64,000 nt of DNA from Solirubrobacterales bacterium (lineage in GTDB: Bacteria > Pseudomonadota > Alphaproteobacteria > Rhodospirillales > Magnetospirillaceae): NCBI GenBank assembly GCA_050260775.1, contig JBLNCP010000041.1:18198-82197 (forward strand), read 5' to 3'. Of the stretch, positions 45,993 to 64,000 are shown piece after piece. Numbering within the stretch: position 1 is the first letter of the stretch; each line of letters opens with the position of its first letter. The notes beneath the pieces were generated by a model. That model was given only the letters and a program-made list of their open reading frames with translations. It was not told where the DNA came from and did no database searches. Position numbers and translations under genes: made by a program.

Positions 45993-46922
45993 ATGGAACA
46001 GACGTTATTGCTGGCCGCCGTGTTTGCGACGGTGGTGCTCAGCGTGGTCGGGGCCGGCATGCTGCTGCGCGACCGCGGCATCGACCGTCGGCTGGCGGGG
46101 TCGACCACCGGCACGGCGCCCTCGTCCTCGCCCAAACTGGCCTTCAACGCCACCAGCCCCATCGTCCAGCTCGCCTTGAAGGCGGGCGCCGCCAAGGCCG
46201 ACGAGCAGACCCGGGGCAAGCTGCGCCGCCAATTGGCGCAGGCCGGCTATCTCGGTCCCAACGCGCCCTCGATCTACCTGGGCATGCGGGTCCTGCTGTC
46301 CCTGTCCCTGCCGCTGGTCGGTCTGCTGGTCTCGTCGGTGGTCGCCTCGACGATGACGTATGAGGACAGCCTCATGGTGATGGTCGGCCTGGGGCTCCTG
46401 GGCTACCTGCTGCCGTCGCTCTACATCGGCCGGGTGGTCAAGACGCGGCAGCGCCTGGCGCGCGAGGGGTTCCCCGACGCCCTCGACATGCTGGTGGTGT
46501 GCGTCGAGGCGGGGCTGGGCATCGACGCCGCCATCCAGAAGGTCGGCGACGAGATCGTGCGCGGCCATCCGCTGCTGTCCTGGCACTTCCGCCTGATGGG
46601 CCTGGAACTTCGGGCGGGCAAGGGGCGCGAGGATGCCCTTCGGCACTTCGCCGACCGCATCGGCATAGACGAGGTCTCGGCCCTCGTCGGCCTGCTGATC
46701 CAGACGGAACGGCTGGGTACCAGCATGGCACAGGCCTTGAAGGCGTATTCCGACGACATGCGCGCCAGGCGCATGCTGAGGGCCGAAGAGAAGGCGCAGA
46801 AGCTGGGCGTGCTGATGAGCCTGCCGCTCATCGGCTTCATCCTGCCCGCTCTCGTCATTGCCATCCTGTCCCCGGCCTTCATCCGTGCCGCCGAGGAAGT
46901 CCTGCCGATGTTCTTCAACTGA
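45993..46922 (+). CDS. tadC: type II secretion system F family protein TadC
   Basis: 309-aa second T2SSF-family membrane protein (FPDALDMLVVCVEAGLGIDAA...). Confidence 0.85.
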   Translation: MEQTLLLAAVFATVVLSVVGAGMLLRDRGIDRRLAGSTTGTAPSSSPKLAFNATSPIVQLALKAGAAKADEQTRGKLRRQLAQAGYLGPNAPSIYLGMRVLLSLSLPLVGLLVSSVVASTMTYEDSLMVMVGLGLLGYLLPSLYIGRVVKTRQRLAREGFPDALDMLVVCVEAGLGIDAAIQKVGDEIVRGHPLLSWHFRLMGLELRAGKGREDALRHFADRIGIDEVSALVGLLIQTERLGTSMAQALKAYSDDMRARRMLRAEEKAQKLGVLMSLPLIGFILPALVIAILSPAFIRAAEEVLPMFFN

Positions 46923-46933
46923 GGGAGGCCGCC

Positions 46934-47971: not shown

Positions 47972-48849
47972 GGAAGATCATCCTGCCGCTGGTGACGCTC
48001 TCGGTGCTGTCGCTCGGGGCCTGTGCCGGCAACCCGAACACCGAACGGCCCGCCACCAGCCGGACCAAGGTTGAAGTGGAGGCCATGGTGGAGGCGGGCC
48101 ACTCCGCCCTTGCCGACGGCCACCCTGAGGAGGCGTCGCAATACTTCTCGCGGGCGCTGACCGAGGCTCCCGACAATGGCCGGGCCAAACTGGGCCTGGC
48201 CGAACTGAAGCTGCTGCGCGGCGAATATCCCCGTGCCGCCCAGATGTTCAAGGACCTGGAGAGCGACGAGGTCGTTGCGGCCGCTGCCAAGCAGGGCAGG
48301 GGGATCGCCCTGCTGATGGGCGGCAAGTCCGACGCGGCGCAGGCCGAACTCGAAGCGGCGGTCGCCGAGGATGCCAAGCTGTGGCGGGCATGGAATGCCC
48401 TCGGCCACATCCACGACCGCGCCAAGCGCTGGGACGAGGCCACCGCCTGCTACACCGCCGCCATCGAGGCGCTGCCCGGGTCGGCGTATCCGCACAACAA
48501 CCTCGGCTATTCCTACCTGCTGCAGGGCAAGTACCCCGAGGCGGCGCGCGAGTTGTCCGAGGCGCTCAGGCTCAAGCCGGATTTCGAGGTGGCGCGCAAC
48601 AACCTGCGGCTGGCCCTGGCATGGCAGGGCCGCTACGTGGAGGCCCTGGCGGGGGTGCCGCGCGAGAAGATGCCGGCCGCGCTCAACAATGTGGGCTACG
48701 CGGCGCTGGTCCGCGGGGACCTGTCGGCGGCGGAGGCCTACCTGACCCGCGCGGTGGAGGTCAGTCCCAGCTTCTTCGAACCCGCGGCCAAGAACCTGCT
48801 GCAACTGGATGCGGCCAAGGGGACCGACACCAGCCAGGGGGGGCGCTGA
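47968..48849 (+). CDS. TadD-like TPR lipoprotein
   Basis: Lipobox LSLGAC followed by multiple TPR repeats. It overlaps the preceding gene by 4 nt (ATGA). Confidence 0.7.
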   Translation: MRKIILPLVTLSVLSLGACAGNPNTERPATSRTKVEVEAMVEAGHSALADGHPEEASQYFSRALTEAPDNGRAKLGLAELKLLRGEYPRAAQMFKDLESDEVVAAAAKQGRGIALLMGGKSDAAQAELEAAVAEDAKLWRAWNALGHIHDRAKRWDEATACYTAAIEALPGSAYPHNNLGYSYLLQGKYPEAARELSEALRLKPDFEVARNNLRLALAWQGRYVEALAGVPREKMPAALNNVGYAALVRGDLSAAEAYLTRAVEVSPSFFEPAAKNLLQLDAAKGTDTSQGGR

Positions 48850-49350: not shown

Positions 49351-49623
49351 TCAGTCGCGCCGGCGGTCGAAGCTCAGCTTCATGGCGATCAGCGCGACGA
49401 TCATCGTCCCGGCCAGCGAGTTGGCGAACACCACCGACCAGCCGTCCAGCATCAGGCCGTAGATTATCCACAGGGCCATGGCCACCAGGGCCATGATCAT
49501 CCAGCTGAAGCTGAGATCCTGGGCCGAGCGGGTCACCCAGGTCCGGCGGACCTGCGGCAGCAGCGAGACGGTCGACAGGACGGCGGCGACCATGCCGACC
49601 GCTTCGGCGTTGATGTGGCCCAA
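49351..49623 (-). CDS. SemiSWEET / PQ-loop family transporter
   Basis: Three-TM protein with the PQ motif (LSTVSLLPQVRRTW.TRSAQDLS). A TTG start at 49623 is supported by a GGGAGGG RBS 5 nt upstream. The ATG at 49656 is the alternative. Confidence 0.65.
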   Translation of the reverse strand: MGHINAEAVGMVAAVLSTVSLLPQVRRTWVTRSAQDLSFSWMIMALVAMALWIIYGLMLDGWSVVFANSLAGTMIVALIAMKLSFDRRRD

Positions 49624-49670
49624 GGGACCCTCCCAAAAGTTTCTCGGCGTCCGCACCTTAGTGCCCAGGG

Positions 49671-49779: not shown

Positions 49780-50577
49780 ATGAATAGTCGTGAACGCCAG
49801 ATGCTCGAGATCCTCAAGCGGGGCCGGGACGAGTTCGGGTACACCGCCATCAAGGCGGAGTTCGAGGCCGAAGGCACCCGGGTCGAGGAGCTTCTGCGCC
49901 TTATCGAGATCACCCGCAAGGCCGGCCTGAATTTCGGCCTGAAGATCGGCGGCTGCGAGGCCATGCGCGACCTGCTGGAGGCCGTGCAGATCGGCGTCGA
50001 ATACATCATCGCGCCGATGATCGAGAGCCCCTACGCGCTGTCCAAGTTCATCGACGGCAAGAACAAAGTCTACGACAAGGACCAGCAGCAGGACACCGAC
50101 TTCCTGTTCAACCTGGAAACCATCTCGGCGTTCAACTGTCTGTCCGACATGATCGCCATGGCCAAGGCCCCCGGCGGCACCAATGGCGTGGTGTTCGGCC
50201 GCGTCGACTTCTCGCTGTCGTGCGGCTACTCGCGTGACGCCATCAACGACGACAAGGTCACCGACTACGTCGTCGCCACCGCGGCGGCGTGCAAGGAGAA
50301 CGACCTCGACATCGTCGTCGGCGGCGGCGTCTCCATGGACGCGATCCCGGCGCTGCGCCGGATCAAGCAGACCAAGCTCACCCGGTTCGAGACCCGCAAG
50401 ATCATCTTCAAGGGCGAGGCCATCGACACCCCCAACATCGAGAAGGGCCTGCTCAACGCGGTTCATTTCGAGTTGCTGTGGCTGCTGAACAAGCGCGACT
50501 ACTACGGCCTGATCCAGCACGAGGACGACAAGCGCATCGAGATGCTCGAGAAGCGCTGGAAAGTCCTGAACGGCTGA
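49780..50577 (+). CDS. TIM-barrel aldolase / citrate-lyase-like (HpcH/HpaI superfamily) protein, putative
   Basis: 265 aa. The pattern KAEFEAEG...KIGGCEA..D...A...[15 protein letters not shown] resembles PEP/pyruvate-binding TIM-barrel lyases. The assignment is tentative. Confidence 0.45.
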
Positions 50578-50593
50578 TCCGGGGAGCCGTCGG

Positions 50594-51307
50594 ATGGCGG
50601 GGGGAAGCGCCGGCACGCTGCTGCTGTTCGGTGGCACCGGCGTGATCGCCGGCGCCATCCGGGACCTTTTCAAATCCCAGGGCTGGCGGGTGGTTTCGAC
50701 CGCCCGCCGACCGCCCGAGGGGGCCGGCGACGACTGGGTCGCCTTCGACCCCTTCGCCGAGGGGTTCGACCACGCTTGCCTAGACGGGCGGGGACCGTTC
50801 TCGGCGGTGGTGTGGGCGCAGGGCGCCAACCGCAACGACAGCGTCTACGATCTCGATGTCGACGCCCATCTCGACCTCTACCGCGCCAACGTGCTGTTCA
50901 ACCTGGTGAGCCTCAAGCTGATGCTCGACCGGGGGCTGCTGGCTCCGGCCAGCCGCCTGTGCGTGATCAGCTCCATCTGGCAGAACCTGGCGCGCCAGAA
51001 AAAGCTGTCCTACTGCGTCACCAAATCGGCGCTGCAGGGGTTCGTGCTTTCGGCCTCCGCCGATCTTGCCGAGGACGGCCACGTCATCAACGCCATTCTG
51101 CCCGGCGCCCTGGATACTCCGATGACCCGGGCCAACCTGCAGCCGGCGCAGATCGCCGCCATCGCCGGCGCCACCAAATTCGGTCGTCTGCCCCAGCTGG
51201 ACGACGTCGCCAACCTGGCACTGTTCCTGTGCGGTCCCGGCAATACCGGCATCACCGGGCAGTTCATCGCCGCCGATCTGGGATTCAGCCATGTCCGCAT
51301 CGTTTGA
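50594..51307 (+). CDS. short-chain dehydrogenase/reductase
   Basis: FGGTGVIAGAI (Rossmann), then SS...YCVTKSAL (Ser and YxxxK) and PGALDTPMT. Confidence 0.8.
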   Translation: MAGGSAGTLLLFGGTGVIAGAIRDLFKSQGWRVVSTARRPPEGAGDDWVAFDPFAEGFDHACLDGRGPFSAVVWAQGANRNDSVYDLDVDAHLDLYRANVLFNLVSLKLMLDRGLLAPASRLCVISSIWQNLARQKKLSYCVTKSALQGFVLSASADLAEDGHVINAILPGALDTPMTRANLQPAQIAAIAGATKFGRLPQLDDVANLALFLCGPGNTGITGQFIAADLGFSHVRIV

Positions 51308-52364
51308 GGTTTCGTCGAGCACCGGCGCCTACGGCGTCGAGATCGTGCCGGGCTCGTTCGCCGCGCTGGCCAAGGCGACCGGTGACGTGGTGACGGTCTG
51401 CGACGAGCGTTTCGCCAAGGATCTCGGCGGCGGGCGCGTGCTGGCCCTGGCCGCCGACGAATCCACCAAGAGCCTGGAAGCCATGCCGGCCATCATCAGC
51501 CGCCTGCGCGAGCTGGGCGCCACGCGCTCGACCCGGCTGGTCGCCGTGGGCGGCGGCATCGTCCAGGACGTGGCCGCCTTCTGCGCCTCGGTCTACATGC
51601 GCGGGCTGGTGTGGGAATACTGGCCGACCACCCTGCTGGGCATGGTCGATTCCTGCATCGGCGGCAAATCCTCCATCAACGCCGGTGCCTACAAGAACCT
51701 GGTCGGCACCTTCCATCCGCCCGAGACCATCCGCATCGATCCCCGCCTTGCCGCCTCGCTGTCGATCGAGCAGCGCGTCGCCGGCCTGTGCGAGGCGGTC
51801 AAGATCTGCTTCGCCGGGGGCGACGAGCCCTTCGCCGCCTATCTCGCCCGCAATCCCGAGGTGGCCATGGGCGAGGTGGAACTGGAGGGAGTGATCCACT
51901 CCACCCTGCTGACCAAGAAGTGGTTCATCGAGGTCGACGAGTTCGACCGCGCCGAACGCCTGCTGCTCAATTTCGGCCACACCTTTGGCCACGCCATCGA
52001 GGCGGCCTCCGCCTTCGCCATCAGCCACGGGGTGGCGGTCGGCCTCGGCATGCTGTGCGCAGCCGAACTGGGCGCCCGCCGCGGCTTCGATTACGCCAAG
52101 GTCGCCCGGGTGCGCCAGTTGGTGGCGCATACCGAGGCGCTGCTGGCCAAGGTCGCGGGCCTCGCCCAGGCTTTGGGGCGGGTCGATCCGGCGGCGGCCA
52201 CCGAGCGCCTGCTGGCCGACAAGAAGCACGGCGCCGATTTCCTGGCGGTCATCGCCATCGACGCCCAGGGGCATCTGGAGCGGCTCAAGCTGCCGCGCAC
52301 TCCCGAGAGCCTGGACACCATCCGCGGCGTGTTCGCCGCCATCATCGCGAGATACGGGGCATGA
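51291..52364 (+). CDS. 3-dehydroquinate synthase-like sugar-phosphate cyclase family protein
   Basis: GGGIVQDVAAFCAS, DSCIGGKSSINAGAYKNLVGTFHPP and LNFGHTFGHAIE match DHQS-family motifs. It overlaps the SDR gene by 17 nt and is not next to aroK. Confidence 0.8.
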   Translation: MSASFEVSSSTGAYGVEIVPGSFAALAKATGDVVTVCDERFAKDLGGGRVLALAADESTKSLEAMPAIISRLRELGATRSTRLVAVGGGIVQDVAAFCASVYMRGLVWEYWPTTLLGMVDSCIGGKSSINAGAYKNLVGTFHPPETIRIDPRLAASLSIEQRVAGLCEAVKICFAGGDEPFAAYLARNPEVAMGEVELEGVIHSTLLTKKWFIEVDEFDRAERLLLNFGHTFGHAIEAASAFAISHGVAVGLGMLCAAELGARRGFDYAKVARVRQLVAHTEALLAKVAGLAQALGRVDPAAATERLLADKKHGADFLAVIAIDAQGHLERLKLPRTPESLDTIRGVFAAIIARYGA

Positions 52365-54127
52365 AGTACAGCGACGTCCTCGCCGACTGGCTGGTCCAGC
52401 TCGGCTATACCCACTGCTTCTATCTGGCGGGCGGCAACATCATGCACCTGCTGGAAAGCGTCAGCCGGCGCTTCACCGCCATCCCGGTGGTGCACGAGGT
52501 CTGCGGCGGCATCGCCGCCGAGTACTTCACCGAGATCCCCGAAGGCGGCCGCGCCTTCGCGCTGGTCACCGCCGGTCCGGGCCTCACCAACATCGTCACC
52601 GCCATGGCGGGCGCCTTCCTGGAGAGCCGCGAACTTCTGGTGCTGGGCGGCCAGGTTAAGGTCCCCGACCTTGCGCGCGGCCAGTTGCGCCAGCGCGGCA
52701 TCCAGGAGATCGCCGGCGTCGACATCGCCCGCCCGGTCACGGTGCTGTCGCACCTGATGGACGAGGTGCTGGACCGCGAGGCCTTCTGCCGCGTCGCCGA
52801 GTCCGGCAGCTCCGGCCGCAAGGGTCCCGTCTTCATCGAGATCCCGCTCGACATCCAGGCCCGCGACGTCGATGCCGACGCGTTGGGGGCGTCGCCGCTG
52901 GCGGTCCGCCGCGGTACGGCGCCGCAGGGGCCGTCCGCCGCCGAGATGGACAAGGTGGCGGCCATGGTGCGCGCCGCCGAGCGACCGGTGCTGCTGCTGG
53001 GCGGCGGCGTCTCGCGCGCCGCCGCGGCGGCGGCCGATTTCGCCGCCATGGGCGTGCCGGTGCAGACCACCTGGAACGGCGCCGACCGCGTCGCCGCCGA
53101 CCACCCGCTCTATTTCGGCCGCCCCAATACCTGGGGCCAGCGCTACGCCAACCTCGTGCTGCAGCAGGCCGACCTCGTGGTCGCGCTGGGCAGCCGGCTC
53201 GGCCTGCAGCAGACCGGCTTCAATCACCAGGAATTCGCGCCCGTCGCCAAGGTGGTCCAGGTGGATTGCGATCCGGCCGAGTTGGACAAGGGCCATCCCC
53301 GGGTTGACCTGCCTCTGTGCGGCGATGCCGACCGGGTGCTCGCCCACCTGGGCTCCGCCACGCTCGGCGACCACGGCGCCTGGGTCGAGTATTGCCGCGA
53401 GATCAAGGCGTCGGTGCCCCTGATCGAGCCGATCAACACCACCGGCCCCGACTTCATCTCCCCCTACGTGTTCTGCGAGACCCTGTCGCGGCTGTGCGCC
53501 GAGGGCGACGTCGTCATCCCCTGCAGCAGCGGCGGCGCCTTCACGGTGATGATGCAGACCTTTGCCCAGAAGCGGGGCCAGCGCATCGTCACCGACAAGG
53601 GACTGGCGTCCATGGGCTATGGCCTGTCGGGCGCCATCGGCGCGGCGCTGGCCGCCGATGGCAAGCGGACGGTGCTGGTGGAGGGCGACGGCGGCTTCGC
53701 CCAGAACCTGCAGGAAATCGGCACGGTGGCGGCCAATCGCCTGAACCTCAAGATGTTCGTCTTCGACGACAGCGGCTACGCCTCGATCCGCATGACCCAG
53801 CGCAACTACTTCGGCGGGCGCTACGTCGGCTGCGACCTCAACACCGGCCTCGGCCTGCCCGACTGGGACAAGCTGTTCGGGGTGTGGGGTGTCCCCGCCT
53901 ACCGGCTGAAGCCCGGCTTTGCCGATGATGCCGGGTTCCGCGCCCTGTTCGACCAGCCCGGGCCGGTCGGCTTCATCGTGCCGGTCGATCCTGGCCAGAC
54001 CTATCTCCCCAAGATCGCCAGCCGGGTGACCGAGACTGGCGGCATGGTGTCGAACCCGCTGCACCTGATGTCGCCGCCGCTGGACGATGCGGTGATGGCC
54101 CGGGTCGGCCGCTACCTGCCCAAGTGA
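52361..54127 (+). CDS. thiamine-diphosphate-dependent enzyme (acetolactate synthase large-subunit-like)
   Basis: An N-terminal Pyr domain (VHEVCGGIAAEYF..., TAGPGLTNIVTAMA), a central domain, and a C-terminal PP domain with GDGGFAQNLQE...N (ThDP-Mg motif). ATGA overlap with the preceding gene. Confidence 0.85.
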   Translation: MKYSDVLADWLVQLGYTHCFYLAGGNIMHLLESVSRRFTAIPVVHEVCGGIAAEYFTEIPEGGRAFALVTAGPGLTNIVTAMAGAFLESRELLVLGGQVKVPDLARGQLRQRGIQEIAGVDIARPVTVLSHLMDEVLDREAFCRVAESGSSGRKGPVFIEIPLDIQARDVDADALGASPLAVRRGTAPQGPSAAEMDKVAAMVRAAERPVLLLGGGVSRAAAAAADFAAMGVPVQTTWNGADRVAADHPLYFGRPNTWGQRYANLVLQQADLVVALGSRLGLQQTGFNHQEFAPVAKVVQVDCDPAELDKGHPRVDLPLCGDADRVLAHLGSATLGDHGAWVEYCREIKASVPLIEPINTTGPDFISPYVFCETLSRLCAEGDVVIPCSSGGAFTVMMQTFAQKRGQRIVTDKGLASMGYGLSGAIGAALAADGKRTVLVEGDGGFAQNLQEIGTVAANRLNLKMFVFDDSGYASIRMTQRNYFGGRYVGCDLNTGLGLPDWDKLFGVWGVPAYRLKPGFADDAGFRALFDQPGPVGFIVPVDPGQTYLPKIASRVTETGGMVSNPLHLMSPPLDDAVMARVGRYLPK

Positions 54128-55077
54128 TGGGCCGCCTCGCCTTCTCGCCCCATGTGGGCGCCGCCCTGGCGGCCTCCGGGCTGTCGGTGGCGGTGACCGG
54201 CGGGGGAGGATGGATCGGCCAGGGCGCCCTCGAAATGCTGGAGGGCGCCCTGGGCGACGACTTCGCCGCCCGCGTCCGCGTGTTCGGCTCGCGGGCCCGG
54301 TCGCTGGAGCTCCGCTCCGGCCGGCAGGTGGCCTGCGCGCCGCTGGCGCGGATGGCGGAACTGCCGCCCGGGCCCTGGGCCTTCCTTCATTTCGCCTTCC
54401 TCACCCGCGACCGTCTGGGCGGGCAATCGGTGGACAGCTTCATCGCCGGCAACCAGGCGATCACCGACACGGTGGCGGCGGCCGCCGAGCGCGTGCACGT
54501 GCGCGGCATGGTCTCGGTGTCGTCGGGGGCGGTGCATCTGCCGGGCGGGCTGGAAGGCAACGCCTACGGTGCCATGAAGCTGCGCGAGGAGGAGCGGCTG
54601 TCCGAGCTGGCCGGCCGTCTCGGGGCCGCGCTGATGGTGCCGCGGCTGTTCGCGCTGTCAGGCCCCTTCGTCAACAAGCTCGACACCTACGCCCTGGCCT
54701 CGATCCTGGTGGCGGCGCTCAAGGGCGGACCGGTGGTGCTGCGTGCCGGCCATCGGGTCGAGCGCTCGTACATCCACGTGCGCGACGTGGTCGATCTGTG
54801 CGTGGCGGGAATGCTGGCGGGGGATTGTCCCCAGGCGCCCTTTGACGCCTGCGGCTCCGAGGTTGTGGAGATGGGGGAACTGGCGCGTCGGGCCCTGGCG
54901 GTGCTGGGACGGCCCGCCATCGCCATCGAGCGCCCGCCGGTGGATGCCACGCGGGTCGACCGCTACACCGGCGATCCGGCGACGGTGCGGGCGCTGGCCG
55001 CCCGCCACGGCATCCGCTTGCTCGACCTGGACGCCCAGATCGCCAGCACGGCGGAATACCTACACCAGCTTTCCTGA
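54124..55077 (+). CDS. NAD-dependent epimerase/dehydratase family protein
   Basis: VTGGGGWIGQG Rossmann motif, and YGAMK (YxxxK). GTG 54124 or ATG 54127 overlaps the stop of the ThDP enzyme gene. Confidence 0.7.
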   Translation: MMGRLAFSPHVGAALAASGLSVAVTGGGGWIGQGALEMLEGALGDDFAARVRVFGSRARSLELRSGRQVACAPLARMAELPPGPWAFLHFAFLTRDRLGGQSVDSFIAGNQAITDTVAAAAERVHVRGMVSVSSGAVHLPGGLEGNAYGAMKLREEERLSELAGRLGAALMVPRLFALSGPFVNKLDTYALASILVAALKGGPVVLRAGHRVERSYIHVRDVVDLCVAGMLAGDCPQAPFDACGSEVVEMGELARRALAVLGRPAIAIERPPVDATRVDRYTGDPATVRALAARHGIRLLDLDAQIASTAEYLHQLS

Positions 55078-56997
55078 CATCGCCGTCAGTTCGCGGGCCA
55101 TGGCCCGCACCACCGGCTCCCAGTCGTCGACCCGCTCCTGCCGGAACAGCCGCGCGCTGGGATACCACGGGCTGTCCTCGCGGTCGCGCAGCCAGCGCCA
55201 GTCGGCCACCGCCGACAGCATCATCCACAGGGGACGGCCGAGGGCTCCGGCCAGGTGGGCGGGAGCGGTGCACGAACTGATGACCAGATCCAGGCCGGCC
55301 ATGATGGCGGCGGTGTCGTCGAAGCTTTGGATGTCGGCGCCCAGGTCGGTGACGTTGGCGGGCAGGTCGCGGTCGGCGAGGTGCCGGCGGCCGTCTTCCT
55401 TCTGCAGGGCGAAGAAGTGTACGCCCGGAACGTCGAACAGCGGCGCCACGGCGGCCAGGCCCGGCGAGCGCCAATGGTCCTCGGCGAAGGTGGCGCGTCC
55501 CGCCCAGATGATCCCGACCTTGAGGCCCGAGGGCGCCGCCTTGCGCAGGCGCTTGCGCCAGGTGGTCACCAGCTTCTTGTCGGGGCTGAGATAGGGGGCC
55601 TTGCACGGGATGGTGTCCAGCGTGGTGCGCAGCCGCTTGGCCACCCCCATCAGCGGGCAATGGAGGTCGACCTCGGGCAGCGGGGTGCCCGAGCGATGCA
55701 GGGTGCCGACGCCCGCCAGCCGCCCCATGAGGCCAAGGAGCGCCTCGTGCGGGGTGAACACCACGTGGGCGCCCTGGGCGGCCAGCACGGGGACGTAGCG
55801 GGCGAAGAACAAGGTGTCGCCCAGACCCTGTTCGGCATGGACGAGGATGCGGCGGCCGGCCAGATCCTCACCCTGCCACTCGGGCATCGGGAAGGCGCGG
55901 CGATGGGGGGCGAGGTGGGGCGTCTCCCAGCGCGCCTCGTAGCCGTCCCAGCCGCGCACGTCCCCCAGGGTGAGCAGGGCAAGGCCGTGCTCGAGGCGCG
56001 CGTCGACGTTGGCGGGATCGAGTTCCTGCGCCTTGGCGAAGGCGGCGATGGCCTCTTCCAGGTTTCTCGCATACTTGAGCCCGCGTCCCAGGGCGACCCA
56101 CGACGAGGCCTCTGCCGGCTTCAGGTCCAGGGCGCGGCGGTAGGCGGCGATGGCCTCGTCAAAGCGGGCGCCGTCGATGAGGGCGTTGCCGAGATTGCCC
56201 CAGGCGTCGGCCAGGGCGGGATTGAGCGCCAGCGCCCGCGAGATCAGCCTTGCCGCCTCGGCCGGGTTCTTGCCGGCGCGGTGGACGACCCCCAGCAGGT
56301 GCAGGGCGTCGACATTGTCCGGATCGGCGGCCAGCACCGCCTCGTAGCCGGCCCGGGCCTCGTCGTGCCGGCCGGCGCGATGGGCGTCGAACGCGCGCTT
56401 GAGTTGGCTGTCCCGGTCGATTTGCGGGTGATACACAAGGATTGCGCCGTGAGGCTGGCCCAGATAGCCGAGATCGGCCAAACCGGCCTCTACGGCCTTC
56501 AGATCGGGCGCCAGCACCAGGCCGGGGCGGAACCGCTGGATGAGGGCGAGGGCGGCGGCAAGGGTGCCCCCGGAGGCTCCGATCAGGCTGATGCCGTCGA
56601 GGCGGTCGATCAGGCCCTCGGAGGCCAGTCCGTCCACGGTCGAGCCGTCCTCGGGCAGGGCGTAGAGGTTGGTCAGGCGGTTGCCCAGTGCATTGCGGGC
56701 CATCCGCGCCAGGGCGACCGGATCGGTCTCCAGCGCGATGACCCGACCCTCCGGCCCGACGAGGCGGGCGGACAGCAGCGCGAGAAAGCCGATGCCGGCG
56801 CCGAGCTCGACGAACGTTCCCCCGGCGGGAAGGCCGGAGAGAAGGGCGGTCGCCGCCTCCGACTGCGGGAAGGCGCCGGCCTTCAGGCGGGCGAGGACGG
56901 CGGCCTGGGCGGCGATGGCGTCGTCCAAGACCAGGGTCAGGGAGCGGGGCTCCCCGTCCGCCGGGGTGAAGGTGAACGTCAGTTTCTGGAGGGGCAT
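55060..56997 (-). CDS. three-part fusion: SAM-methyltransferase-like N domain, TPR repeats, and a GT9-like (heptosyltransferase-fold) glycosyltransferase domain
   Basis: FVELGAGIGFLAL (SAM motif I). TPR repeats follow (AEAARLISRALALNPALADAWGNLGNAL...). The C-terminal part has ILVHAEQGLGDTLFFARYVP, GIIWAG and DLVISSCTAPAHLAGALGRPLW, typical of GT9. ATG 56997 lies 4 nt after the GT41 stop; GTG 57012 is the alternative. Confidence 0.7.
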   Translation of the reverse strand: MPLQKLTFTFTPADGEPRSLTLVLDDAIAAQAAVLARLKAGAFPQSEAATALLSGLPAGGTFVELGAGIGFLALLSARLVGPEGRVIALETDPVALARMARNALGNRLTNLYALPEDGSTVDGLASEGLIDRLDGISLIGASGGTLAAALALIQRFRPGLVLAPDLKAVEAGLADLGYLGQPHGAILVYHPQIDRDSQLKRAFDAHRAGRHDEARAGYEAVLAADPDNVDALHLLGVVHRAGKNPAEAARLISRALALNPALADAWGNLGNALIDGARFDEAIAAYRRALDLKPAEASSWVALGRGLKYARNLEEAIAAFAKAQELDPANVDARLEHGLALLTLGDVRGWDGYEARWETPHLAPHRRAFPMPEWQGEDLAGRRILVHAEQGLGDTLFFARYVPVLAAQGAHVVFTPHEALLGLMGRLAGVGTLHRSGTPLPEVDLHCPLMGVAKRLRTTLDTIPCKAPYLSPDKKLVTTWRKRLRKAAPSGLKVGIIWAGRATFAEDHWRSPGLAAVAPLFDVPGVHFFALQKEDGRRHLADRDLPANVTDLGADIQSFDDTAAIMAGLDLVISSCTAPAHLAGALGRPLWMMLSAVADWRWLRDREDSPWYPSARLFRQERVDDWEPVVRAMARELTAMSGKLV

Positions 56998-57001: not shown

Positions 57002-58861
57002 TCAGAGCGCACTCAGGGCGGTCGGGAAGGGCACGACCCGGCTGGTGGGATCGAGCGACGGCTCGCACCACTGCGCCTTCTCGATGGGGCCCAGGAACAG
57101 CGGGGCGTGCGGCCGCTGCTTCTGGATCTGGTCGTGATTCTGCATGATGTGGTCGATGGCGACCTTGAAGTACTCGACGTCGTGCGGGTCGGACAGGCGC
57201 GAATCGAGGTCGTGGGTGCTGATGCGGTAGGACATGGCGGCCCGGTGGTCCGCGTCGTCGATCAGCCGCACCGCCTTGTCCACGTAGTCGTCGGGGTCGC
57301 GGGCGATCAGTTCCTCCAGGCCGACATGGCTGAGGATCTGGGTGCCGAGGCGGCTGTAGAGGTACTTGCCAGGCAGCACCACGATCGGCTGGCTGTAGTA
57401 GAGCGAATCCAGCACCGAGTTGAAGCCGCCGAACGGATTGGCCTCCAGCGCCATGTCGCCCAGGCTGATGGACTGCATGTAGGCGTCGTTCTGGACGTTC
57501 ATCACCTCGACGACGTCGGCGCCCAGCAGGTTGCCCAGGCTGGTGCGGAACGGCAGCAGGGCGTTGTTCTTGAGGATCGTGTTGAGCGGGAAGAAGCGGT
57601 ACTTGATCGGCGTCGACACCCGGTCGCGGATGCGCCGCAGCAGCTGCAGGTGCTCGGCATTGGTCTTCTGCGCCGTCCACGGACAGTTGATGTAGACGAT
57701 CCCCGGCGGCTTCGGCTCGTAGGTCGGCTTGTAGGTCGACAGGATCGTGCGCGCGCCGATGCCGGGAGTGACCACCAGGCGCTCGCTGAACTCGGTGGTG
57801 TAGTCGTGGGCGTTGAAGGTCATGGTGCCGCCCATGAAGTAGTCGACCTCGCCGCCGAAGGTGGAGACCGGATGGCCGCCCCAGATGATCTGGATGGGGG
57901 CCAGCCGCAGGTTCGAGGTGAAGATGCTCTCCACGCTCATGCCCACGTCCACGAAGATGACGGCGTGGAAGTCGTTCTCCTTCACCGCGTCGAGGTCGAG
58001 CCGTCCGTCGCGCACCACCACGAACTTGACGTCCGAGAACAGCTCGCGGTCGATGTGTTCCTTGATGGTGTAGCCGCTGGTGTAGGCGATCAGGACCAGG
58101 TCGTAGTCCTTGGCCAGCTCCTTCATGTAGTCGTAGTACACGCGATGGACGACATGGCCCTTGTACCAGCGGTCGGTGAACACGCCGATCTTCTTCTTGC
58201 CCTTGCTCTTGGGCTTGTTCTGGATGTCGACCGTGCCGAAGCCGGTGCGGACCAGCTGGTTGATCTTGTGCTTGACCACGGCGTTGAGCGACGGGTCGAT
58301 GTAGGTGACGCCGAAATAGGTGTGGTTGATGGCCGGGGGCACGCCGGTCATGCGCGGGTCCTGGTAGGCCAGGTGCTGGCGCAGGTTGGCGAGGGCATGG
58401 GTGTCGGCGAGGTAGCCGTGGGTCGAGCCGACATAGGCGTAGTACCACATGGTCGCCAGGCCGGCATCGGTGCCGAACAGCAGGCTCCGGTCGACCGCCA
58501 CCGAATTGCGCGGCGAGTAGAGCGCCAGCAGCTTGATGAAGTTGTTGGGCTGGACCAGAAGCTGCTCGATCAGGGAATCGGTGCTGCGGAAGCGCGAGAT
58601 CGAGAAGAGGTTGGCGATGGTCTCGTTGAAGCCGATCACCCGCGAGGCCATGCCGCGGGGAACGACGAAGTCGGCGCGGGTGAACAGGAAGCCCAGCGAC
58701 TGGCAGAACTCGTTGATCTTGGTCTGGACCGTGTCGTCGGCCCGCTGGATGCAGACGGTCGACAGGCGTTCCAGGTATTCGGTGATGACCTCGGTGGCCT
58801 TGGCGTGGTCGCCGTCGAGATAATGGCGCAGGGCGGCCTGGGTATCGAACTGGATGTCCAT
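57002..58861 (-). CDS. HMW1C-like GT41-family glycosyltransferase without TPR repeats, putative protein glycosyltransferase
   Basis: About 620 aa with an all-alpha N-terminal region and no TPR. GT41-like motifs: LAPIQIIWGGHPVSTFGGEVDYFMGG, INCPWTAQKTNAEHLQLLRRI and EANPFGGFNSVLDSLYYSQPIVVLPG. The size is that of H. influenzae HMW1C and A. pleuropneumoniae NGT. ATG 58861 lies 7 nt after the HlyD stop; GTG 58879 is the alternative. Confidence 0.6.
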   Translation of the reverse strand: MDIQFDTQAALRHYLDGDHAKATEVITEYLERLSTVCIQRADDTVQTKINEFCQSLGFLFTRADFVVPRGMASRVIGFNETIANLFSISRFRSTDSLIEQLLVQPNNFIKLLALYSPRNSVAVDRSLLFGTDAGLATMWYYAYVGSTHGYLADTHALANLRQHLAYQDPRMTGVPPAINHTYFGVTYIDPSLNAVVKHKINQLVRTGFGTVDIQNKPKSKGKKKIGVFTDRWYKGHVVHRVYYDYMKELAKDYDLVLIAYTSGYTIKEHIDRELFSDVKFVVVRDGRLDLDAVKENDFHAVIFVDVGMSVESIFTSNLRLAPIQIIWGGHPVSTFGGEVDYFMGGTMTFNAHDYTTEFSERLVVTPGIGARTILSTYKPTYEPKPPGIVYINCPWTAQKTNAEHLQLLRRIRDRVSTPIKYRFFPLNTILKNNALLPFRTSLGNLLGADVVEVMNVQNDAYMQSISLGDMALEANPFGGFNSVLDSLYYSQPIVVLPGKYLYSRLGTQILSHVGLEELIARDPDDYVDKAVRLIDDADHRAAMSYRISTHDLDSRLSDPHDVEYFKVAIDHIMQNHDQIQKQRPHAPLFLGPIEKAQWCEPSLDPTSRVVPFPTALSAL

Positions 58862-58868
58862 GGCAGAC

Positions 58869-60167
58869 TCACTTTTCACGGAAGGCGGTCACGAGGGTCT
58901 TGGAAATCGGATTGAGCAGGTAGGTCAGCACCGTGCGCGGGCGGGTGGGGATGACCACCATCACCGGCATGCCGGGCTGGAGCGACGCGTTGACCGCATG
59001 CACGTCCTCCTGCGAAACCTGGACCTTGGTCATGTAGAAACCGAGGCCGCTGCGGGGATCGACCATGCGGTCGGCGGAGATGGACAGCACCTTGCCGGGC
59101 ACGGTGGGGATCAGCGCCGTCTTGAAGGCGATGAGCTTGACCTGCGCCTCCATGCCGACATGCATCGCCTCGATTTCGTCGGTATGGATCGGCGCCTCGA
59201 TGACCAGGTCGCCGGTGGAGGGCACGATCTCCATCACCTTCTCGCCGGGCGAGATCACGGTGGGGACGCCGTGCACGGTCAGGCCGAGCACGTAGCCGTC
59301 TTCCGGGGCGATCACGGTGGCGCGCGACAGCTGCTCCTTGAGGGCCCTGAGCCGGGGGCCGATCTCGGCCAGGCGGTCCTGCGCCTCCTTGAGCTTGCTG
59401 TTGATCTCTTCCTGCTCCTTGCTGCGGACCAGGGCGATCTCGCGGTCGAGCGTCAGCATGCGCTGGCGCGTCTCGTTGACCCGCGAATCCAGCTCGCCGA
59501 GCGTGCCGGTGAGCCCGGCGAGATCGCGCTCGAGCTCCATCAGCTTGACCCGCGGGGCATAGCCCTTGGTCTGGAGATCGCGCATGCCGTCGACCTGGCT
59601 CTGCAGCGAGTGCACCTGCTTGGACTTGCTGTCGCGCTGGGACTGCAGGCCGACGATGGATTCCTTCAGCTGAACCATCTGCTGGTTGCGCAGCGCGATC
59701 TCGCTGTCCAGCGCGCTGCGGCGCGAGCGCAGCAGCTGCAGCTCCTCGTCGATCTGGTCCTGCCGGACCTTGCTGAGGCCGGCAGGGACCTCAAAGGACG
59801 TCGCCCCGGCGCGCTCGGCCACCAGCCGCGACTCGCGCAGCTTCATGGCGTCGAACTGCGCCTCGGTGATGTCGATGTTGGCCTGGATGTCGGTGACGTC
59901 GAGCACCATCAGCGGCTGGCCCGTGGCCACGTGCTCGCCCTCGCGCACCAGGATCTGGCGGACGATGCCGCCATCGCGGTGCTGGATCGGCTTGCGGTAG
60001 CCCTCGACGGCGACATTGCCCTGGCTGACGACGGCGCCTTCCAGCTCGGCGAAGGCGGCCCAGCCGCCGAACACGCCGAAGAACAGGAAGATGAGCCCCC
60101 CGGCCAGGATGATCAGCTTGCGGGCGCTGTCGTCGATGGCGGCCAGGCGGATGGACGGAGTCGTCAT
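58869..60167 (-). CDS. HlyD-family type I secretion periplasmic adaptor
   Basis: 432 aa with an N-terminal TM helix, a lipoyl-like region (VREGEHVATGQPLMVLD), a long coiled coil, and a C-terminal beta-barrel region, typical of T1SS MFPs. Confidence 0.9.
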   Translation of the reverse strand: MTTPSIRLAAIDDSARKLIILAGGLIFLFFGVFGGWAAFAELEGAVVSQGNVAVEGYRKPIQHRDGGIVRQILVREGEHVATGQPLMVLDVTDIQANIDITEAQFDAMKLRESRLVAERAGATSFEVPAGLSKVRQDQIDEELQLLRSRRSALDSEIALRNQQMVQLKESIVGLQSQRDSKSKQVHSLQSQVDGMRDLQTKGYAPRVKLMELERDLAGLTGTLGELDSRVNETRQRMLTLDREIALVRSKEQEEINSKLKEAQDRLAEIGPRLRALKEQLSRATVIAPEDGYVLGLTVHGVPTVISPGEKVMEIVPSTGDLVIEAPIHTDEIEAMHVGMEAQVKLIAFKTALIPTVPGKVLSISADRMVDPRSGLGFYMTKVQVSQEDVHAVNASLQPGMPVMVVIPTRPRTVLTYLLNPISKTLVTAFREK

Positions 60168-60171: not shown

Positions 60172-61914
60172 TCACGCCCCCTGCTGCGTCATCGCCGGGG
60201 CCGGCGCGGGGGCCTGCGCCGTGTTGTCGGCGACCTTGACCAGCCGGCGCAGGACCTCGTCGCGGCTGCCGGCCTGCTCGATGACGCCCTCGCGCAGGAC
60301 GATGACGTCCTCGACGATGTTGAGCAGATGCGGCCGATGGGTGATCAGCACCATGGTGGTCCCGTTGGCGCGCATGTGCTGCAGGCAATGGATCAACGAC
60401 TGCTCGCCCTCGAGGTCCAGGTTGGAATTGGGCTCGTCGAGGACCAGGAAGGCCGGCATGCCGTAGACGGCGCGGGCAAGGCCGAGGCGCTGGCGCTGGC
60501 CGGCGGACAACTGCCCGCCGCTGGCCTTGAGCTCGGTGTGATAGCCCTGTGGCAGCCGCATGATCAGTTCGTGGATGCCCGCCAGCTTGGCCGCCTCGAT
60601 CACCTTGGCGTCGTCGCCCTCGGCCAGGCGGGTGATGTTGTCGCGCACGCTGGCGGCGAACAGCTCGATGTCCTGGGGCAGAAAGCCGACATGCTGGCCC
60701 ATTTGGCCCATGTCGATGGTGGCGACGTCGGCGCCGTCGAGGCGGCAATGGCCCGAGGTCGGCTGCAGCGCGCCGACCATCAGGCGGGCCAGCGTGCTCT
60801 TGCCGGCGCCGCTCGGCCCGATCAGGGCCACGGCCGCGCCCGGGCGCATGTCGAAGGTGATGCCCGAGATGATCTGCTTGCCGCTGTCGGGCGGAGAGAA
60901 CACCAGACGCTCCACCGAGATCTGGCCCTTGGGGCGGGGCAGGGCGATGGTGGCTTGGCGCGGCGGTTGCGCCAGCAGCAGGTCGTTCAGGCGCTGGAAG
61001 GCGGCGAACGAGGTGAGGACCGGCCGCCATGAGTTGATCAGCATGTCCACCGGCTGGATGGCGCGGCCGAGCAGCATGGCGATGGCGTACATGCCGCCGA
61101 CGCTCATGCCCATGTCGATGACCAGGAAGGCGCCGATGCCGATGGACAGGATTTGCAGGTATTGGCGCAGGAAGCGCGAGATCGCCGTGAACCAAGCCGA
61201 GCGCTCGCTGGCGATCAACTGCTGCAGCAGCATGTCGTCGCGGCTGACCGACCACTTGCGGGTCAGGCCCTCGAACATGCCCATGGCATGGACCACGTCG
61301 GCGTTGCGGACCGCGGAATCCGTGAACTCGTAATTCTCAAGCCCGCGCGCGTTGGATTGGCGCATCGAGCGGCCGGTGACGATCTCGTTGATCACGCCCA
61401 GCGCGATGAGCAGCACGATGGCGCCGGTGGTGAACAGCCCCGCCACCGGGTGGAGGATGAAGACGACGATGACATTGACCGGGATCCACGGGATGTCGAG
61501 GACGGCCAGCACCGCGGGGCTGGAGAAGAATTGCCGCAGCGTGTCCAGGTCGCGCAACGCCTGCCCGGTCGGCTCGCCCGGCAGCTTGCGGGCGGTGTCG
61601 ATGATGGCGCCGACGGTGCGCTTGGCCAGGCGCCGCTCCACCCGCAAACTGCCGCGGATCAGGATCTCGCTGCGCAGGGCGTCAAGGGCGCCGTTGGTCA
61701 GGGTGGCCAGCGCCGCGATCAGGGTCAGCAGCAGCAGCGAGCTTTCGCTGTGGCTGGTCACCACGCGGTCGTAGACCTGCATCATGTAGATGGGATAGGC
61801 GAGGAACAGCAGGCTGATGGCGAAGCCCAGCGCCCCGGCGACCGACAGATGGACGCCGACGCTGTAAGCCGCGTCGACCAATTCCGTCGCGAAGCGGTTC
61901 TTCAACCGAACCAT
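60172..61914 (-). CDS. type I secretion system permease/ATPase, PrtD-type (no C39 peptidase domain)
   Basis: A six-TM domain is followed by the NBD: Walker A GPSGAGKST, signature LSAGQRQRLGLARA, Walker B FLVLDEPNSNLD. ATG 61914 has a GGAGGGGG RBS. The stop lies 4 nt before the HlyD start. Confidence 0.9.
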   Translation of the reverse strand: MVRLKNRFATELVDAAYSVGVHLSVAGALGFAISLLFLAYPIYMMQVYDRVVTSHSESSLLLLTLIAALATLTNGALDALRSEILIRGSLRVERRLAKRTVGAIIDTARKLPGEPTGQALRDLDTLRQFFSSPAVLAVLDIPWIPVNVIVVFILHPVAGLFTTGAIVLLIALGVINEIVTGRSMRQSNARGLENYEFTDSAVRNADVVHAMGMFEGLTRKWSVSRDDMLLQQLIASERSAWFTAISRFLRQYLQILSIGIGAFLVIDMGMSVGGMYAIAMLLGRAIQPVDMLINSWRPVLTSFAAFQRLNDLLLAQPPRQATIALPRPKGQISVERLVFSPPDSGKQIISGITFDMRPGAAVALIGPSGAGKSTLARLMVGALQPTSGHCRLDGADVATIDMGQMGQHVGFLPQDIELFAASVRDNITRLAEGDDAKVIEAAKLAGIHELIMRLPQGYHTELKASGGQLSAGQRQRLGLARAVYGMPAFLVLDEPNSNLDLEGEQSLIHCLQHMRANGTTMVLITHRPHLLNIVEDVIVLREGVIEQAGSRDEVLRRLVKVADNTAQAPAPAPAMTQQGA

Positions 61915-62076
61915 GATCTGGAAATCCCCCTCCAACCCGGCCAGAGCCCGACGAGAAGCGCCGGGCGCCCCGGGACATGCCCGGACGGACCCTTATCAGT
62001 ATTGGGCTTCGGAAGGTTAATTCTTGGCTAAGCCCGCGCGCGATGGCGTGCGGGGACTCGCCTTTGGGGGAAGGGA

Positions 62077-62119: not shown

Positions 62120-64000
62120 TTAGACGGTGAAGTCCGCCGCGGTGAGCGAGGTGTTCGACACGCCCAGCAGCACCGAGACCACCGACAGCTCGCCCGACTG
62201 GACGTGGCCGTCGCCGCCGACATTCTCGCGGAACCGCAGGAGCGCTGCGTCGTCGCCCTCGGCGTCGTAGACCACGAACAGCACGTCCTTGGCGTTGCCC
62301 GAGACCGTGAGGCCGGAGAGCATCGTCGCCGCCGAGCTGGTGATCGACGTGGCCGAGCTGCCCGCACTCAGCGAGATGTTCAAGTTGCCGGCGTCGAAGT
62401 CGAACACCAGGTGGCCGCTGTCGGCCGCCAGATTGGCGGTGACCGACACGTTGTTGCTGTACTGGCCGGCGGCGGCGGTGAAGGCCGTCGAGCTGCCGTC
62501 CATGCCCTGGAAGGTCAGGCCGGTGGTGCCATCGCCGAAGCCGATCAGGTCGCTGCCATCGCTGAAGTTGTCGATGACGTCGACGTAGCCCGAGGTACGG
62601 CCCACGTGGGCGAGGTTGTCGTAGCGGACGGTGATGCCGGTGCCCTGGATGTCCAGGGTGTCGGCCCCGTCGCCGCCGATGACGATCCCGCCGTTGGTGG
62701 TGACGTGGATGGTATCGGAACCGGAGTTGCCGACCACGGTGTCCACGTTGGCGACGTAGACCTCGTTGGTGCCGTTGGCGAGCGTCAACCTGTCGGTGCC
62801 CGAACCGCCGTCCATCGTGAAGTCGGTGGTGGTGGTGGTCAGGGTGATCGAGTCGTTGCCGCCGCTGCCGGTCACCGTCTCGATGTTGCTCACCGAGAGG
62901 GTGTTGTCGGCATTGGCGAGGATCAGGTGGTCGCCGCCGGCGCCCAGGTTGATCGAGCCGGTGGTCTGGCCGGCACCCAGGGTGATGTTGTCGTCACCCG
63001 AGCTGCCGACGATGGTCTCGACGTTGGTCACCGTCAGGGTGTGACCGGCGTCGTTCAGGGTCAGCTTGTCGGTGCCGGAGCCGAGATCGATCGTGCCGCC
63101 GACCTGCGAGGTGCTGACGGTGATCGTGTCGTTGCCGGTGCCGCCCATGACCGTCTCGATGCCGGACACGGTGAGGGTGTTGGTGCCATTGGCCAGGTTG
63201 AGGACGTCGGTGCCGGAACCGAAGTCATAGCTTCCGGACGTCTGGGCCACGCTCATCGTCACCGTGTCGGCCCCGGTGCCGCCGAACAGCGTCTCGACGT
63301 TGGCGACCGTCAGGCTGTTGGTGCCGTCGAACAGTTGGACGATGTCCGAGCCGCCCTTGAGGTCGATGGACCCGCTGGTCAGCGCGGTGGCGTAGGTGAT
63401 GGTATCGACGCCCGAGTTGCCGACGACGGTCTCGACGTTGGCCAGGGTCACGGTGTTGGTGCCGGTGGCCAGGTTGAGGATGTCGCTGCCCCCCATCAGG
63501 TCGATGTAGAGGGTGGTTCCGGGCGTGGTCAGCGTCACCGTGTCGACGTTGGCGTTACCGATGATGCTCTCGGTATTGGCCACCGTCAGCGTGTTGACGC
63601 CGTTGGCCAGGACCAGGGTGTCGTCGCCGGCGCCCAGGTTGATGGTACCGGTGGTCTGGGCGGTGCCCAGGGTGATGGTGTCGCCCTGGCTCTTGCCGGT
63701 GATGGTTTCCACGTTGCTGATGGTCAGCGTGTTCCAGTCATCGGCCAGCGTCAGCGAGTCGGTGCCGTTGCCGAGGTCGACCGTGCCGCTGGCGAGGCCC
63801 GCACCCAGGGTGATGGTGTCGGTGCCCTCGTTGCCGACCAGCTTCTCGACGTCGGTCACCGTCAGGGTGTTGGTGCCGTTGGCGAGAACCAGGGTGTCGG
63901 TGCCGTCGTTGAGGTCGATGGTGCCGGTGGTCTGGGCCACGTCCATCGTCACCACGTCGGAGCCGGCGCCGCCGATCACGGTCTCGATGTTGGAGACATG
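62120..64000 (-). CDS. large RTX-like repeat protein with a T1SS C-terminal target region (N-terminus outside the window)
   Basis: The frame is open to the window edge. At least nine 46-aa repeats each carry GGxGxDxUx-like motifs (GGTGNDTIT, GSGGNDSIT, GAGDDTLVL). The C-terminus has GGDGADTLDI...VDVIDNFSDGSDLIGF and ends ...LTAADFTV, typical of T1SS substrates. Confidence 0.8.
   Translation of the reverse strand, partial: HVSNIETVIGGAGSDVVTMDVAQTTGTIDLNDGTDTLVLANGTNTLTVTDVEKLVGNEGTDTITLGAGLASGTVDLGNGTDSLTLADDWNTLTISNVETITGKSQGDTITLGTAQTTGTINLGAGDDTLVLANGVNTLTVANTESIIGNANVDTVTLTTPGTTLYIDLMGGSDILNLATGTNTVTLANVETVVGNSGVDTITYATALTSGSIDLKGGSDIVQLFDGTNSLTVANVETLFGGTGADTVTMSVAQTSGSYDFGSGTDVLNLANGTNTLTVSGIETVMGGTGNDTITVSTSQVGGTIDLGSGTDKLTLNDAGHTLTVTNVETIVGSSGDDNITLGAGQTTGSINLGAGGDHLILANADNTLSVSNIETVTGSGGNDSITLTTTTTDFTMDGGSGTDRLTLANGTNEVYVANVDTVVGNSGSDTIHVTTNGGIVIGGDGADTLDIQGTGITVRYDNLAHVGRTSGYVDVIDNFSDGSDLIGFGDGTTGLTFQGMDGSSTAFTAAAGQYSNNVSVTANLAADSGHLVFDFDAGNLNISLSAGSSATSITSSAATMLSGLTVSGNAKDVLFVVYDAEGDDAALLRFRENVGGDGHVQSGELSVVSVLLGVSNTSLTAADFTV
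62720..64000 (-). repeat. in-frame tandem repeats of about 138 bp (46 aa) inside the RTX-like gene
   Basis: The repeat consensus by eye is G(T/S)IDLG.G.D.L.LANGTNTLTV.NVET..G..G.DTITL......, seen at least nine times. The array continues past position 64000. Confidence 0.85.

Follow-up and report, generated by a model that had tools for sequence, protein, structure and literature searches.

The closest described counterparts of the locus considered here are the cytoplasmic N-glycosyltransferases (NGTs) of the HMW1C/NGT group, such as Haemophilus influenzae HMW1C, Actinobacillus pleuropneumoniae ApNGT and Aggregatibacter aphrophilus AaNGT (PDB 3q3e, 8j30 and 8p0q). These are soluble proteins in which an all-alpha domain precedes a GT-B fold and which lack tetratricopeptide repeats (TPRs), and their genes are linked to that of a large repeat protein, which has to be modified before it is secreted. 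In the literature that we found, characterised NGTs come from Haemophilus, Actinobacillus, Aggregatibacter and Kingella, together with the related HmwC of Yersinia, and the known natural substrates are adhesins secreted by the type V route; our literature searches turned up no pairing of an NGT-type enzyme with a type I secretion system. Here we consider a glycosyltransferase gene of family GT41 in a 64,000-nucleotide stretch of contig JBLNCP010000041.1 (the window, by which we mean this whole stretch), whose product resembles the NGTs in fold and which stands in an operon for a type I secretion system (T1SS). We predict with moderate confidence that the enzyme is a protein glycosyltransferase acting on the cargo of that operon, and what is new here would be the coupling of a T1SS cargo to an enzyme that has the NGT fold and an altered acceptor reader.

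Fold and family of the GT41 protein

The gene lies at 57002..58861 on the minus strand and encodes 619 amino acids from an ATG, which agrees exactly with the preliminary description of this DNA; the two motifs quoted there, LAPIQIIWGGHPVSTFGGEVDYF and ANPFGGFNSVLDSL, are both found in the translation. A GTG at 58879 offers an alternative start (57002..58879, minus strand, 625 amino acids), while the 619-residue ATG version is the one annotated at NCBI as protein P0001 of the metagenome-assembled genome (MAG), and the same gene call is made in three independent metagenome contigs. In a Pfam scan the only domain above its cutoff was the C-terminal PF13844 (Glyco_transf_41; 51.8 bits as compared to a cutoff of 25, E 5.4e-14, residues 472-564), and no TPR family was found at E <= 0.01. 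This catalytic domain, together with fold matches to all GT41 structures, places the protein in CAZy family GT41.

An AlphaFold2 model computed from a 69-sequence alignment (pLDDT 91.5, pTM 0.90) has an all-helical region at residues ~13-214 followed by two Rossmann-like halves, that is, an AAD-type (all-alpha-domain) N-terminus joined to a GT-B fold, with no N-terminal TPRs of the kind that define the SPINDLY and O-GlcNAc transferase (OGT) enzymes. The top ten Foldseek matches in the PDB were all ApNGT or AaNGT (E ~3e-29, template-modelling (TM) score 0.76-0.79, ~620 aligned columns), whereas the TPR-type GT41s (SPINDLY, human OGT and XcOGT) reached a TM of only ~0.5-0.6. A phmmer search of the PDB likewise found ApNGT and AaNGT best, at E 4e-24 to 1.4e-23, as compared to 4e-12 for SPINDLY, 1e-8 for human OGT and 1e-6 for XcOGT. 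The NGTferase model NF049992 aligns at E 1e-30, with residues 61-554 of the protein on positions 68-585 of its 614. The best homologues are thus not TPR-containing OGT-like proteins, TPRs being absent from all of the ~110 closest ones, and the earlier suggestion of a TPR-less GT41 with the HMW1C/NGT architecture is borne out. We predict that the protein is a soluble cytoplasmic glycosyltransferase of family GT41.

The nucleotide-sugar site has also been kept. In AaNGT this site is formed by K440, N520, D524, H276, R280, G369-H370 and T437 (PMC10507012), and all of these are conserved in the aligned protein, as K405, N487, D491, H242, R246, G335-H336 and T402, respectively, so that the site is intact.

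Likeness to HMW1C and the NGTs, as originally proposed, holds for the architecture and fails for membership of the curated NGT family. A comparison with ApNGT and HMW1C by profile and structure gave the fold match described above with profile scores under the curated cutoffs: NF049992 scores 107 bits as compared to a cutoff of 1000, HMW1C_N (PF18071) reaches 18.6 as compared to 27, and PF18254 was not detected in the Pfam scan. Our protein shares only about 20-25% identity with ApNGT and AaNGT; two bona fide HMW1C-like proteins, P0111 and P0112, in which all three Pfam domains are present, are no closer to it than ~24-25% identity. Its closest relatives are instead environmental proteins at 46-51% identity, rather than proteins of Pasteurellaceae, and they belong to a set of ~110 full-length homologues (30-51% identity, all ~600 amino acids, without TPRs and almost all unnamed) from Planctomycetota, Verrucomicrobiota, Cyanobacteria, Telmatospirillum and other groups. 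When 1.84 billion cluster representatives were searched with a profile, 2045 matched at E <= 1e-30. The best 150 of these 2045 all have E < 1e-129; nearly every one of the 150 covers the profile almost from end to end, and some are tandem fusions. In a neighbour-joining tree of the GT-B region, which was computed without bootstrap support and is indicative only, this family is the sister of the HMW1C-like clade and the TPR-containing OGTs fall outside; the phylogeny that had been proposed as a check thus separates the enzyme from the TPR-OGTs and also leaves it outside the HMW1C-like clade. Judged from these sequence comparisons, we place the GT41 protein in a large and uncharacterised family that is sister to the canonical NGTs.

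We note that members of the family also occur as tandem gene duplicates (for instance in locus L070 at 11776-13590, plus strand) and as fusions of two or three GT41 copies in one polypeptide; P0333 (1736 amino acids), P0334 and P0335 are tandem or fused examples.

A type I secretion operon around the GT41 gene

Five closely spaced genes on the minus strand, of which the GT41 gene is the fourth, encode, in order, a repeat protein, an ABC exporter, an HlyD adaptor, the GT41 enzyme and a TPR plus GT9-like protein. Only 7 nt separate the stop of the HlyD gene from the ATG of the GT41 gene, and 4 nt separate the stop of the latter from the next start; the gene order is repeated in the independent contigs L081 and L082. 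The exporter (60172..61935, minus strand) is a PrtD-type T1SS ABC permease/ATPase (TIGR01842, E 5e-182, 606 bits as compared to a cutoff of 510) with ABC_tran and ABC_membrane as its only Pfam domains, the Pfam scan finding no N-terminal peptidase domain. The adaptor (58869..60167, minus strand) is a T1SS periplasmic adaptor of the HlyD family (TIGR01843, E 2.9e-107, 359 bits as compared to 208.65; Pfam HlyD_3).

Adjacent to these two components, both of which are above their curated cutoffs, lies the repeat protein (62120..64000, minus strand), of which the C-terminal part, at least 626 amino acids, is contained in the window before the frame leaves it. In this part a 46-residue repeat (VETxxGxxGxDTITL...LANGTNTLTVxN) occurs in at least 9 exact copies, every one of them with a GGxGxD motif like that of RTX (repeats-in-toxin) proteins; there are 10 matches to RTX-like nonapeptides of the GGxGxD type, and the sequence ends in ...TAADFTV. 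Its homologues in Acetobacteraceae and Rhodospirillales are named Ca2+-binding RTX toxin-like proteins. Given the RTX-like repeats and these annotations, the repeat protein is likely the T1SS cargo, and it is presumed to be the substrate that the operon glycosylates.

The last gene of the operon (55060..56997, minus strand; also called in contig L081) encodes 645 amino acids and matches the Pfam families TPR (E 1e-20), GT9 (8.5e-4) and Methyltransf_31 (2.5e-3). An N-terminal stretch of ~190 amino acids is followed by about five TPRs and a C-terminal GT-B domain of GT9-like type; residues 190-645 are modelled by AlphaFold2 at pLDDT > 90 and the N-terminal ~190 residues at < 50. The latter, which carry the weak methyltransferase match (E ~2e-3), are missing in almost all of 1227 homologues with TPRs and PF01075, which make up a very large uncharacterised family. 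Foldseek recovers the generic SPINDLY/OGT plan of TPRs and GT-B at low TM, and for the GT9-like domain no solved sequence relative and no NCBIfam match were found. With this layout, which is in outline that of a glycosyltransferase directed at proteins, it is a second candidate protein glycosyltransferase. The arrangement recalls the ApNGT-Agt operon of A. pleuropneumoniae, in which an initiating N-glucosyltransferase is followed by an extending glucosyltransferase; as there, a GT41 enzyme that would initiate precedes a second glycosyltransferase in the same operon, whereas the second enzyme here is TPR plus GT9-like with an additional, weakly methyltransferase-like N-terminus rather than Agt-type, and its role is a prediction.

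Convergent on the operon is a five-gene cluster (49780..55077, plus strand) for an HpcH/HpaI aldolase-like protein, a short-chain dehydrogenase/reductase, an AroB-related sugar-phosphate cyclase, a thiamine diphosphate (ThDP)-dependent enzyme and an NAD-dependent epimerase. Assignments drew on Pfam and on NCBIfam, in which the cyclase (TIGR04425, E 2.4e-80) and the ThDP enzyme (acetolactate-synthase-like) both score below cutoff. The cluster resembles a pathway for making an unusual sugar, carbocyclic or branched, and, judging only by its position, might supply an unusual donor sugar to the operon.

Does the family as a whole travel with type I secretion? When 80 genome loci of wider-family GT41s were searched by tblastn with the window's neighbours, no homolog of the HlyD adaptor or of the repeat protein was found near the GT41 gene at any of them; the same search gave one TPR-GT9 homologue (L060) and weak ABC hits only. 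An RTX-type open reading frame (ORF) was likewise near the GT41 gene at none of the 80 loci, and clustering of all flanking ORFs revealed no universal neighbour. Linkage to a T1SS and a repeat protein is not a property of the wider GT41 family.

The situation is different in the enzyme's own subclade. In locus L084, where the GT41 is 46% identical, a 3326-amino-acid protein belonging to the repeat family of the cargo (37% identity, E 3e-45) is encoded ~9 kb away on the other strand, which shows that the GT41 subclade co-occurs with this repeat-protein family in a second, distant genome. Within 10 kb of that GT41 gene there are also a classical TPR-GT41, a GT-A-like gene, FlaF and several sugar-nucleotide-modifying genes. 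The contigs of the other close relatives (P0002-P0004) are of 3 kb or less and uninformative, and a metagenome scan for further members of the subclade produced none, its one match being of an unrelated clade.

Two further features of L084 may be recorded. Genes for DegT, an RmlC-like isomerase and a PseB-like dehydratase are nearby, and directly upstream of the GT41 gene, at 8711-9886 (plus strand), is a replication protein of RPA/Rep3 type, so this glycosylation island may lie on a plasmid or chromid.

Acceptor reading, linkage and alternative explanations

The reading that we favour is as follows. In the cytoplasm, the GT41 enzyme would bind the RTX-like repeat protein while this is still unfolded and attach to it a monosaccharide taken from a nucleotide sugar, after which the ABC/HlyD machinery would export the protein; type I secretion bypasses the periplasm, so its cargo can be glycosylated only in the cytoplasm. 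The linkage would most likely be to Asn, as in the NGTs, the reading of the +2 position would probably be altered or relaxed, and the downstream TPR-GT9-like enzyme would add more sugars or extend the first one. The assignment to Asn is put forward tentatively. Within this model we prefer N-linkage to O-linkage on account of the conserved Tyr/His acceptor pair and of the family's position as sister to the NGTs.

In ApNGT the acceptor Asn is flanked by Y222 and H371 (PMC10466321). The corresponding residues are Y193 and H336, which are found in 78 and 80 of 82 family sequences, respectively, Y193 being invariant in the smaller alignment A4. The residues that read the +2 Ser/Thr are a different matter. 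ApNGT D215, in the motif DVYM, has this role and is shared by all ten active NGTs (PMC10466321), whereas in our MAFFT alignments 215-DVYM-218 corresponds to 186-HTYF-189, with His186 in place of the Asp; across the 82 family sequences this column has H in 41, D in 21 and E in 6. A gapped phmmer pairwise alignment had put D215 at T187, and this was dropped in favour of H186 since two MAFFT alignments are ungapped there; neither placement gives an Asp. The second +2 recognition residue of AaNGT, Arg177 of the all-alpha domain, aligns at Thr153/His154, and the Arg is lost: the column of residue 154 has R in 58 of the 82 sequences and His in our protein, in L084 and in other close relatives. The substitution of His for the Asp and the loss of the Arg in the subclade are what lead us to expect an altered or relaxed +2 reading. 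Substitutions of D215 in ApNGT lower activity and relax the +2 requirement (PMC10466321), and by this analogy the natural His186 would point to acceptor reading that is altered rather than lost.

Within the repeats, Asn residues conserved in both the cargo and its L084 homologue are found in N-[TS]-[LV] and N-V-E-T. In the wider family, the sequences beside the GT41 genes give a further hint. A giant protein enriched in N-X-S/T sequons (z 4.5-10.4, with as many as 5.2 sequons per 100 amino acids) lies within ~4 kb of the GT41 gene at 9 of 79 loci: L004, L007, L024, L027 and L034, where it is directly downstream on the same strand, and L008, L046, L058 and L066. These giants, from Planctomycetota and Verrucomicrobiota, are 1260-2945 amino acids long, with 3-5.6 N-X-S/T per 100 residues and mostly no Pfam domain. 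At L024, L027, L034 and L058 the sequon is clearly above its reversed motif, with Thr at +2 favoured 2.7-2.9-fold, and the GT41s beside such motif-specific giants all have Arg at column 154 together with His at 186, of which our enzyme has the His and not the Arg. No enriched large ORF was seen beyond 4.2 kb from a GT41 gene; this distance effect (Fisher p ~0.03) reaches p ~0.02-0.03 at wider cut-offs and is not significant at 1.5 kb (p = 0.29), and the cut-offs were picked after the data had been seen. The signal is suggestive of Asn-sequon targeting in the wider family, and a widespread system of cytoplasmic N-glycosylation may have the sequon-dense giants among its substrates.

We also observed that the two N-termini inspected among the planctomycete-type giants, those of L004 and L024, carry a LEPRQ or LEIRR motif. 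At L068 (2666-7093, minus strand) and five other cyanobacterial loci, a protein with a two-partner secretion (TPS) domain and a CHAT domain (1475 amino acids) adjoins the GT41 homologue; it is of the same secretion class as HMW1 and is not sequon-enriched.

A number of observations weigh against the favoured reading. Beyond the replacement of the Asp and the loss of the Arg, there is the outcome of our literature searches, which found no characterised member of the sister family. The C-terminal part of the cargo in the window has 11 N-X-S/T sequons as compared to 11.9 +/- 2.9 in shuffled sequences (z = -0.3) and so is not enriched. The acceptor motif first proposed, ANGTNTL, is present in the repeat protein as stated, but only 3 of the 9 repeats have the N-G-T of LANGTN, and the L084 repeat protein has ADGVN or ANAGN in its place; this weakens the motif as an acceptor. 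Among the wider-family loci, the reversed motif [ST]-X-N is equally enriched at L004, L059 and L066, the giants fall into few homologous groups and were compared with no phylum-matched background, and the distance cut-offs were post hoc, as noted. With respect to the operon itself, only two loci of the subclade, the window and L084, have usable context. No TolC-type outer-membrane component turned up among the annotated genes of the window; such a component is often encoded elsewhere.

The strongest alternative is that the same cargo is O-glycosylated on Ser/Thr by an enzyme acting like OGT or like HmwC of Yersinia pestis, which we regard as rather unlikely. HmwC, like our enzyme, is a GT41 protein that has the HMW1C fold and no TPRs; its identity to ApNGT is 41%, and it is reported to act as an O-GlcNAc transferase, so this fold can carry O-linking with UDP-GlcNAc (PMC11329713), and linkage type is not transferable to a protein at 20-25% identity. 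HmwC differs from our enzyme in keeping the Asp (D217), in being far less distant from ApNGT, and in that its reported substrates are unlinked cytoplasmic proteins (PMC11329713). GT41 is otherwise a family of O-transferases, the NGT +2 readers are not kept here, and the cargo, without sequon enrichment, is 25% Ser plus Thr, with conserved Thr residues in V-E-T and D-T-I-T. Against O-linkage stand the equivalents of Y222 and H371, invariant or nearly so in the family, the sister relationship to the NGTs rather than to the TPR-OGTs, and the several relatives adjoining proteins in which N-X-S/T is enriched specifically over the reversed motif.

Alternatively, the position of the gene in the operon might be incidental, and the enzyme might modify unlinked proteins, as an OGT-like regulator or a pilin or flagellin glycosyltransferase would, or extend glycans. 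Most wider-family members have no conserved neighbour, the L084 gene stands among FlaF and sugar-nucleotide genes with its repeat protein 9 kb off on the other strand, a Tad pilus cluster is ~9 kb from the operon in the window, and HMW1C is also able to make hexose-hexose bonds (PMC11329713). We nevertheless consider this improbable: gaps of 7 and 4 nt inside a T1SS operon whose order is repeated in independent contigs argue otherwise, as does the recurrence with the subclade, at 46% GT41 identity, of a repeat-protein family found at none of the 80 other loci.

A third possibility, a canonical Pasteurellaceae-type NGT recently acquired by horizontal transfer, is very improbable. The preliminary description had taken an unusual amino-acid usage as a hint of such an acquisition, and its composition is numerically right: F, Y, M, I, N and K make up 26.5% of the GT41 gene product as compared to 12-20% for most flanking genes, and the GC content of the gene is 0.638 as compared to 0.67-0.73. 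The transfer itself fails on third codon positions, at which GC is 0.946, equal to or above every neighbour (0.87-0.95) and indicative of native codon usage. The lower GC is confined to codon positions 1 and 2, a pattern shared by the unrelated aldolase-like gene, and so reflects amino-acid composition with no sign of foreign origin; the low identity to ApNGT and AaNGT, the closest relatives being environmental, and the 107 bits as compared to 1000 argue in the same direction.

Weakest of all is a classical OGT/SPINDLY-type enzyme with its TPR region diverged beyond recognition, since, for all that the N-terminal domain is all-helical and SPINDLY and OGT match the C-terminal domain significantly, no TPR family is found, the full-length TM is 0.76-0.79 to NGTs and only ~0.5-0.6 to TPR types, and the NGT model aligns from residue 61 on, covering the N-terminal domain, where there is also the weak HMW1C_N match; we reject it.

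Source organism and implications

The alphaproteobacterial setting initially proposed for this DNA is plausible from TrcR, DUF1465, the Tad pilus, the T1SS and the RTX homologues of Acetobacteraceae. The MAG (proteins P0001, P0213 and P0474) is labelled at NCBI as Solirubrobacterales (Actinomycetota), at odds with this gene content. Given the T1SS, a secretin, TrcR, DUF1465 and the Acetobacteraceae-like RTX protein, we take the DNA to be of alphaproteobacterial origin and the label to be probably a binning or labelling error. Elsewhere in the window there is a complete-looking Tad/Flp pilus cluster at 37238-48849 (plus strand) with CpaB/RcpC, a secretin, a TadG-like protein, two TadE, an unassigned 398-amino-acid ORF, the CpaF ATPase, TadB, TadC and a TPR protein, followed by a SemiSWEET/PQ-loop gene at 49351-49656 (minus strand). 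An Fe-S assembly operon at 24763-31097 (plus strand) encodes an Rrf2/IscR-type regulator, two class-V aminotransferases (IscS-like), IscU and HscB, after which comes a member of the Hsp70 family, probably HscA and not DnaK; frataxin CyaY is at 19783-20109.

Precedent for glycosylated RTX-type cargo is provided by the cyanobacterial proteins SwmA and oscillin, Ca2+-binding repeat proteins of the RTX kind that are reported to be glycosylated, with no enzyme named in the relevant parts of that source (PMC3034196). We considered a link between the GT41 family and these proteins and set it aside: no RTX-type neighbour is present at the 80 loci, many of them cyanobacterial, so synteny gives it no support.

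Compared with the HMW1C/NGT systems, the locus described here is alike in its TPR-less all-alpha plus GT-B enzyme (TM 0.76-0.79), in the nucleotide-sugar residues and Tyr/His acceptor pair, and in the predicted pairing of a soluble, cytoplasmic enzyme with a linked, large secreted repeat protein that would have to be modified before export. It differs in that the enzyme is only ~20-25% identical and below all curated family cutoffs, in Asp215 being His and Arg177 being lost, and in a cargo that is not sequon-enriched and leaves by ABC/HlyD type I secretion rather than by the two-partner or autotransporter (type V) routes; its host is an environmental alphaproteobacterium, whereas the hosts of NGTs are host-associated gamma- and betaproteobacteria.

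This leads us to speculate that a phylum-spanning sister family of the NGTs, in Planctomycetota, Verrucomicrobiota, Cyanobacteria and Alphaproteobacteria, decorates giant surface proteins, and that it is here coupled to a T1SS, the exchange of Asp for His changing the Asn contexts that are used, for instance to N-V-E-T or N-T-L, both conserved in the 46-residue repeat. We offer this wider reading as a speculation that is, taken whole, somewhat doubtful. If the sister family is active on proteins, it would hold natural enzymes with other +2 readers (His, and in other members Asp or Glu) for NGT glyco-engineering, in which engineered ApNGT D215 mutants are already in use for non-canonical sequons. 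Such activity would also mean that glycosylation can stand upstream of type I secretion, in which cargo passes from the cytoplasm to the outside, and that sugar-nucleotide-dependent cytoplasmic protein glycosylation is widespread in environmental bacteria. If our wider reading is true, NGT-type cytoplasmic glycosylation would extend well beyond the few host-associated gamma- and betaproteobacteria in which it feeds type V secretion.

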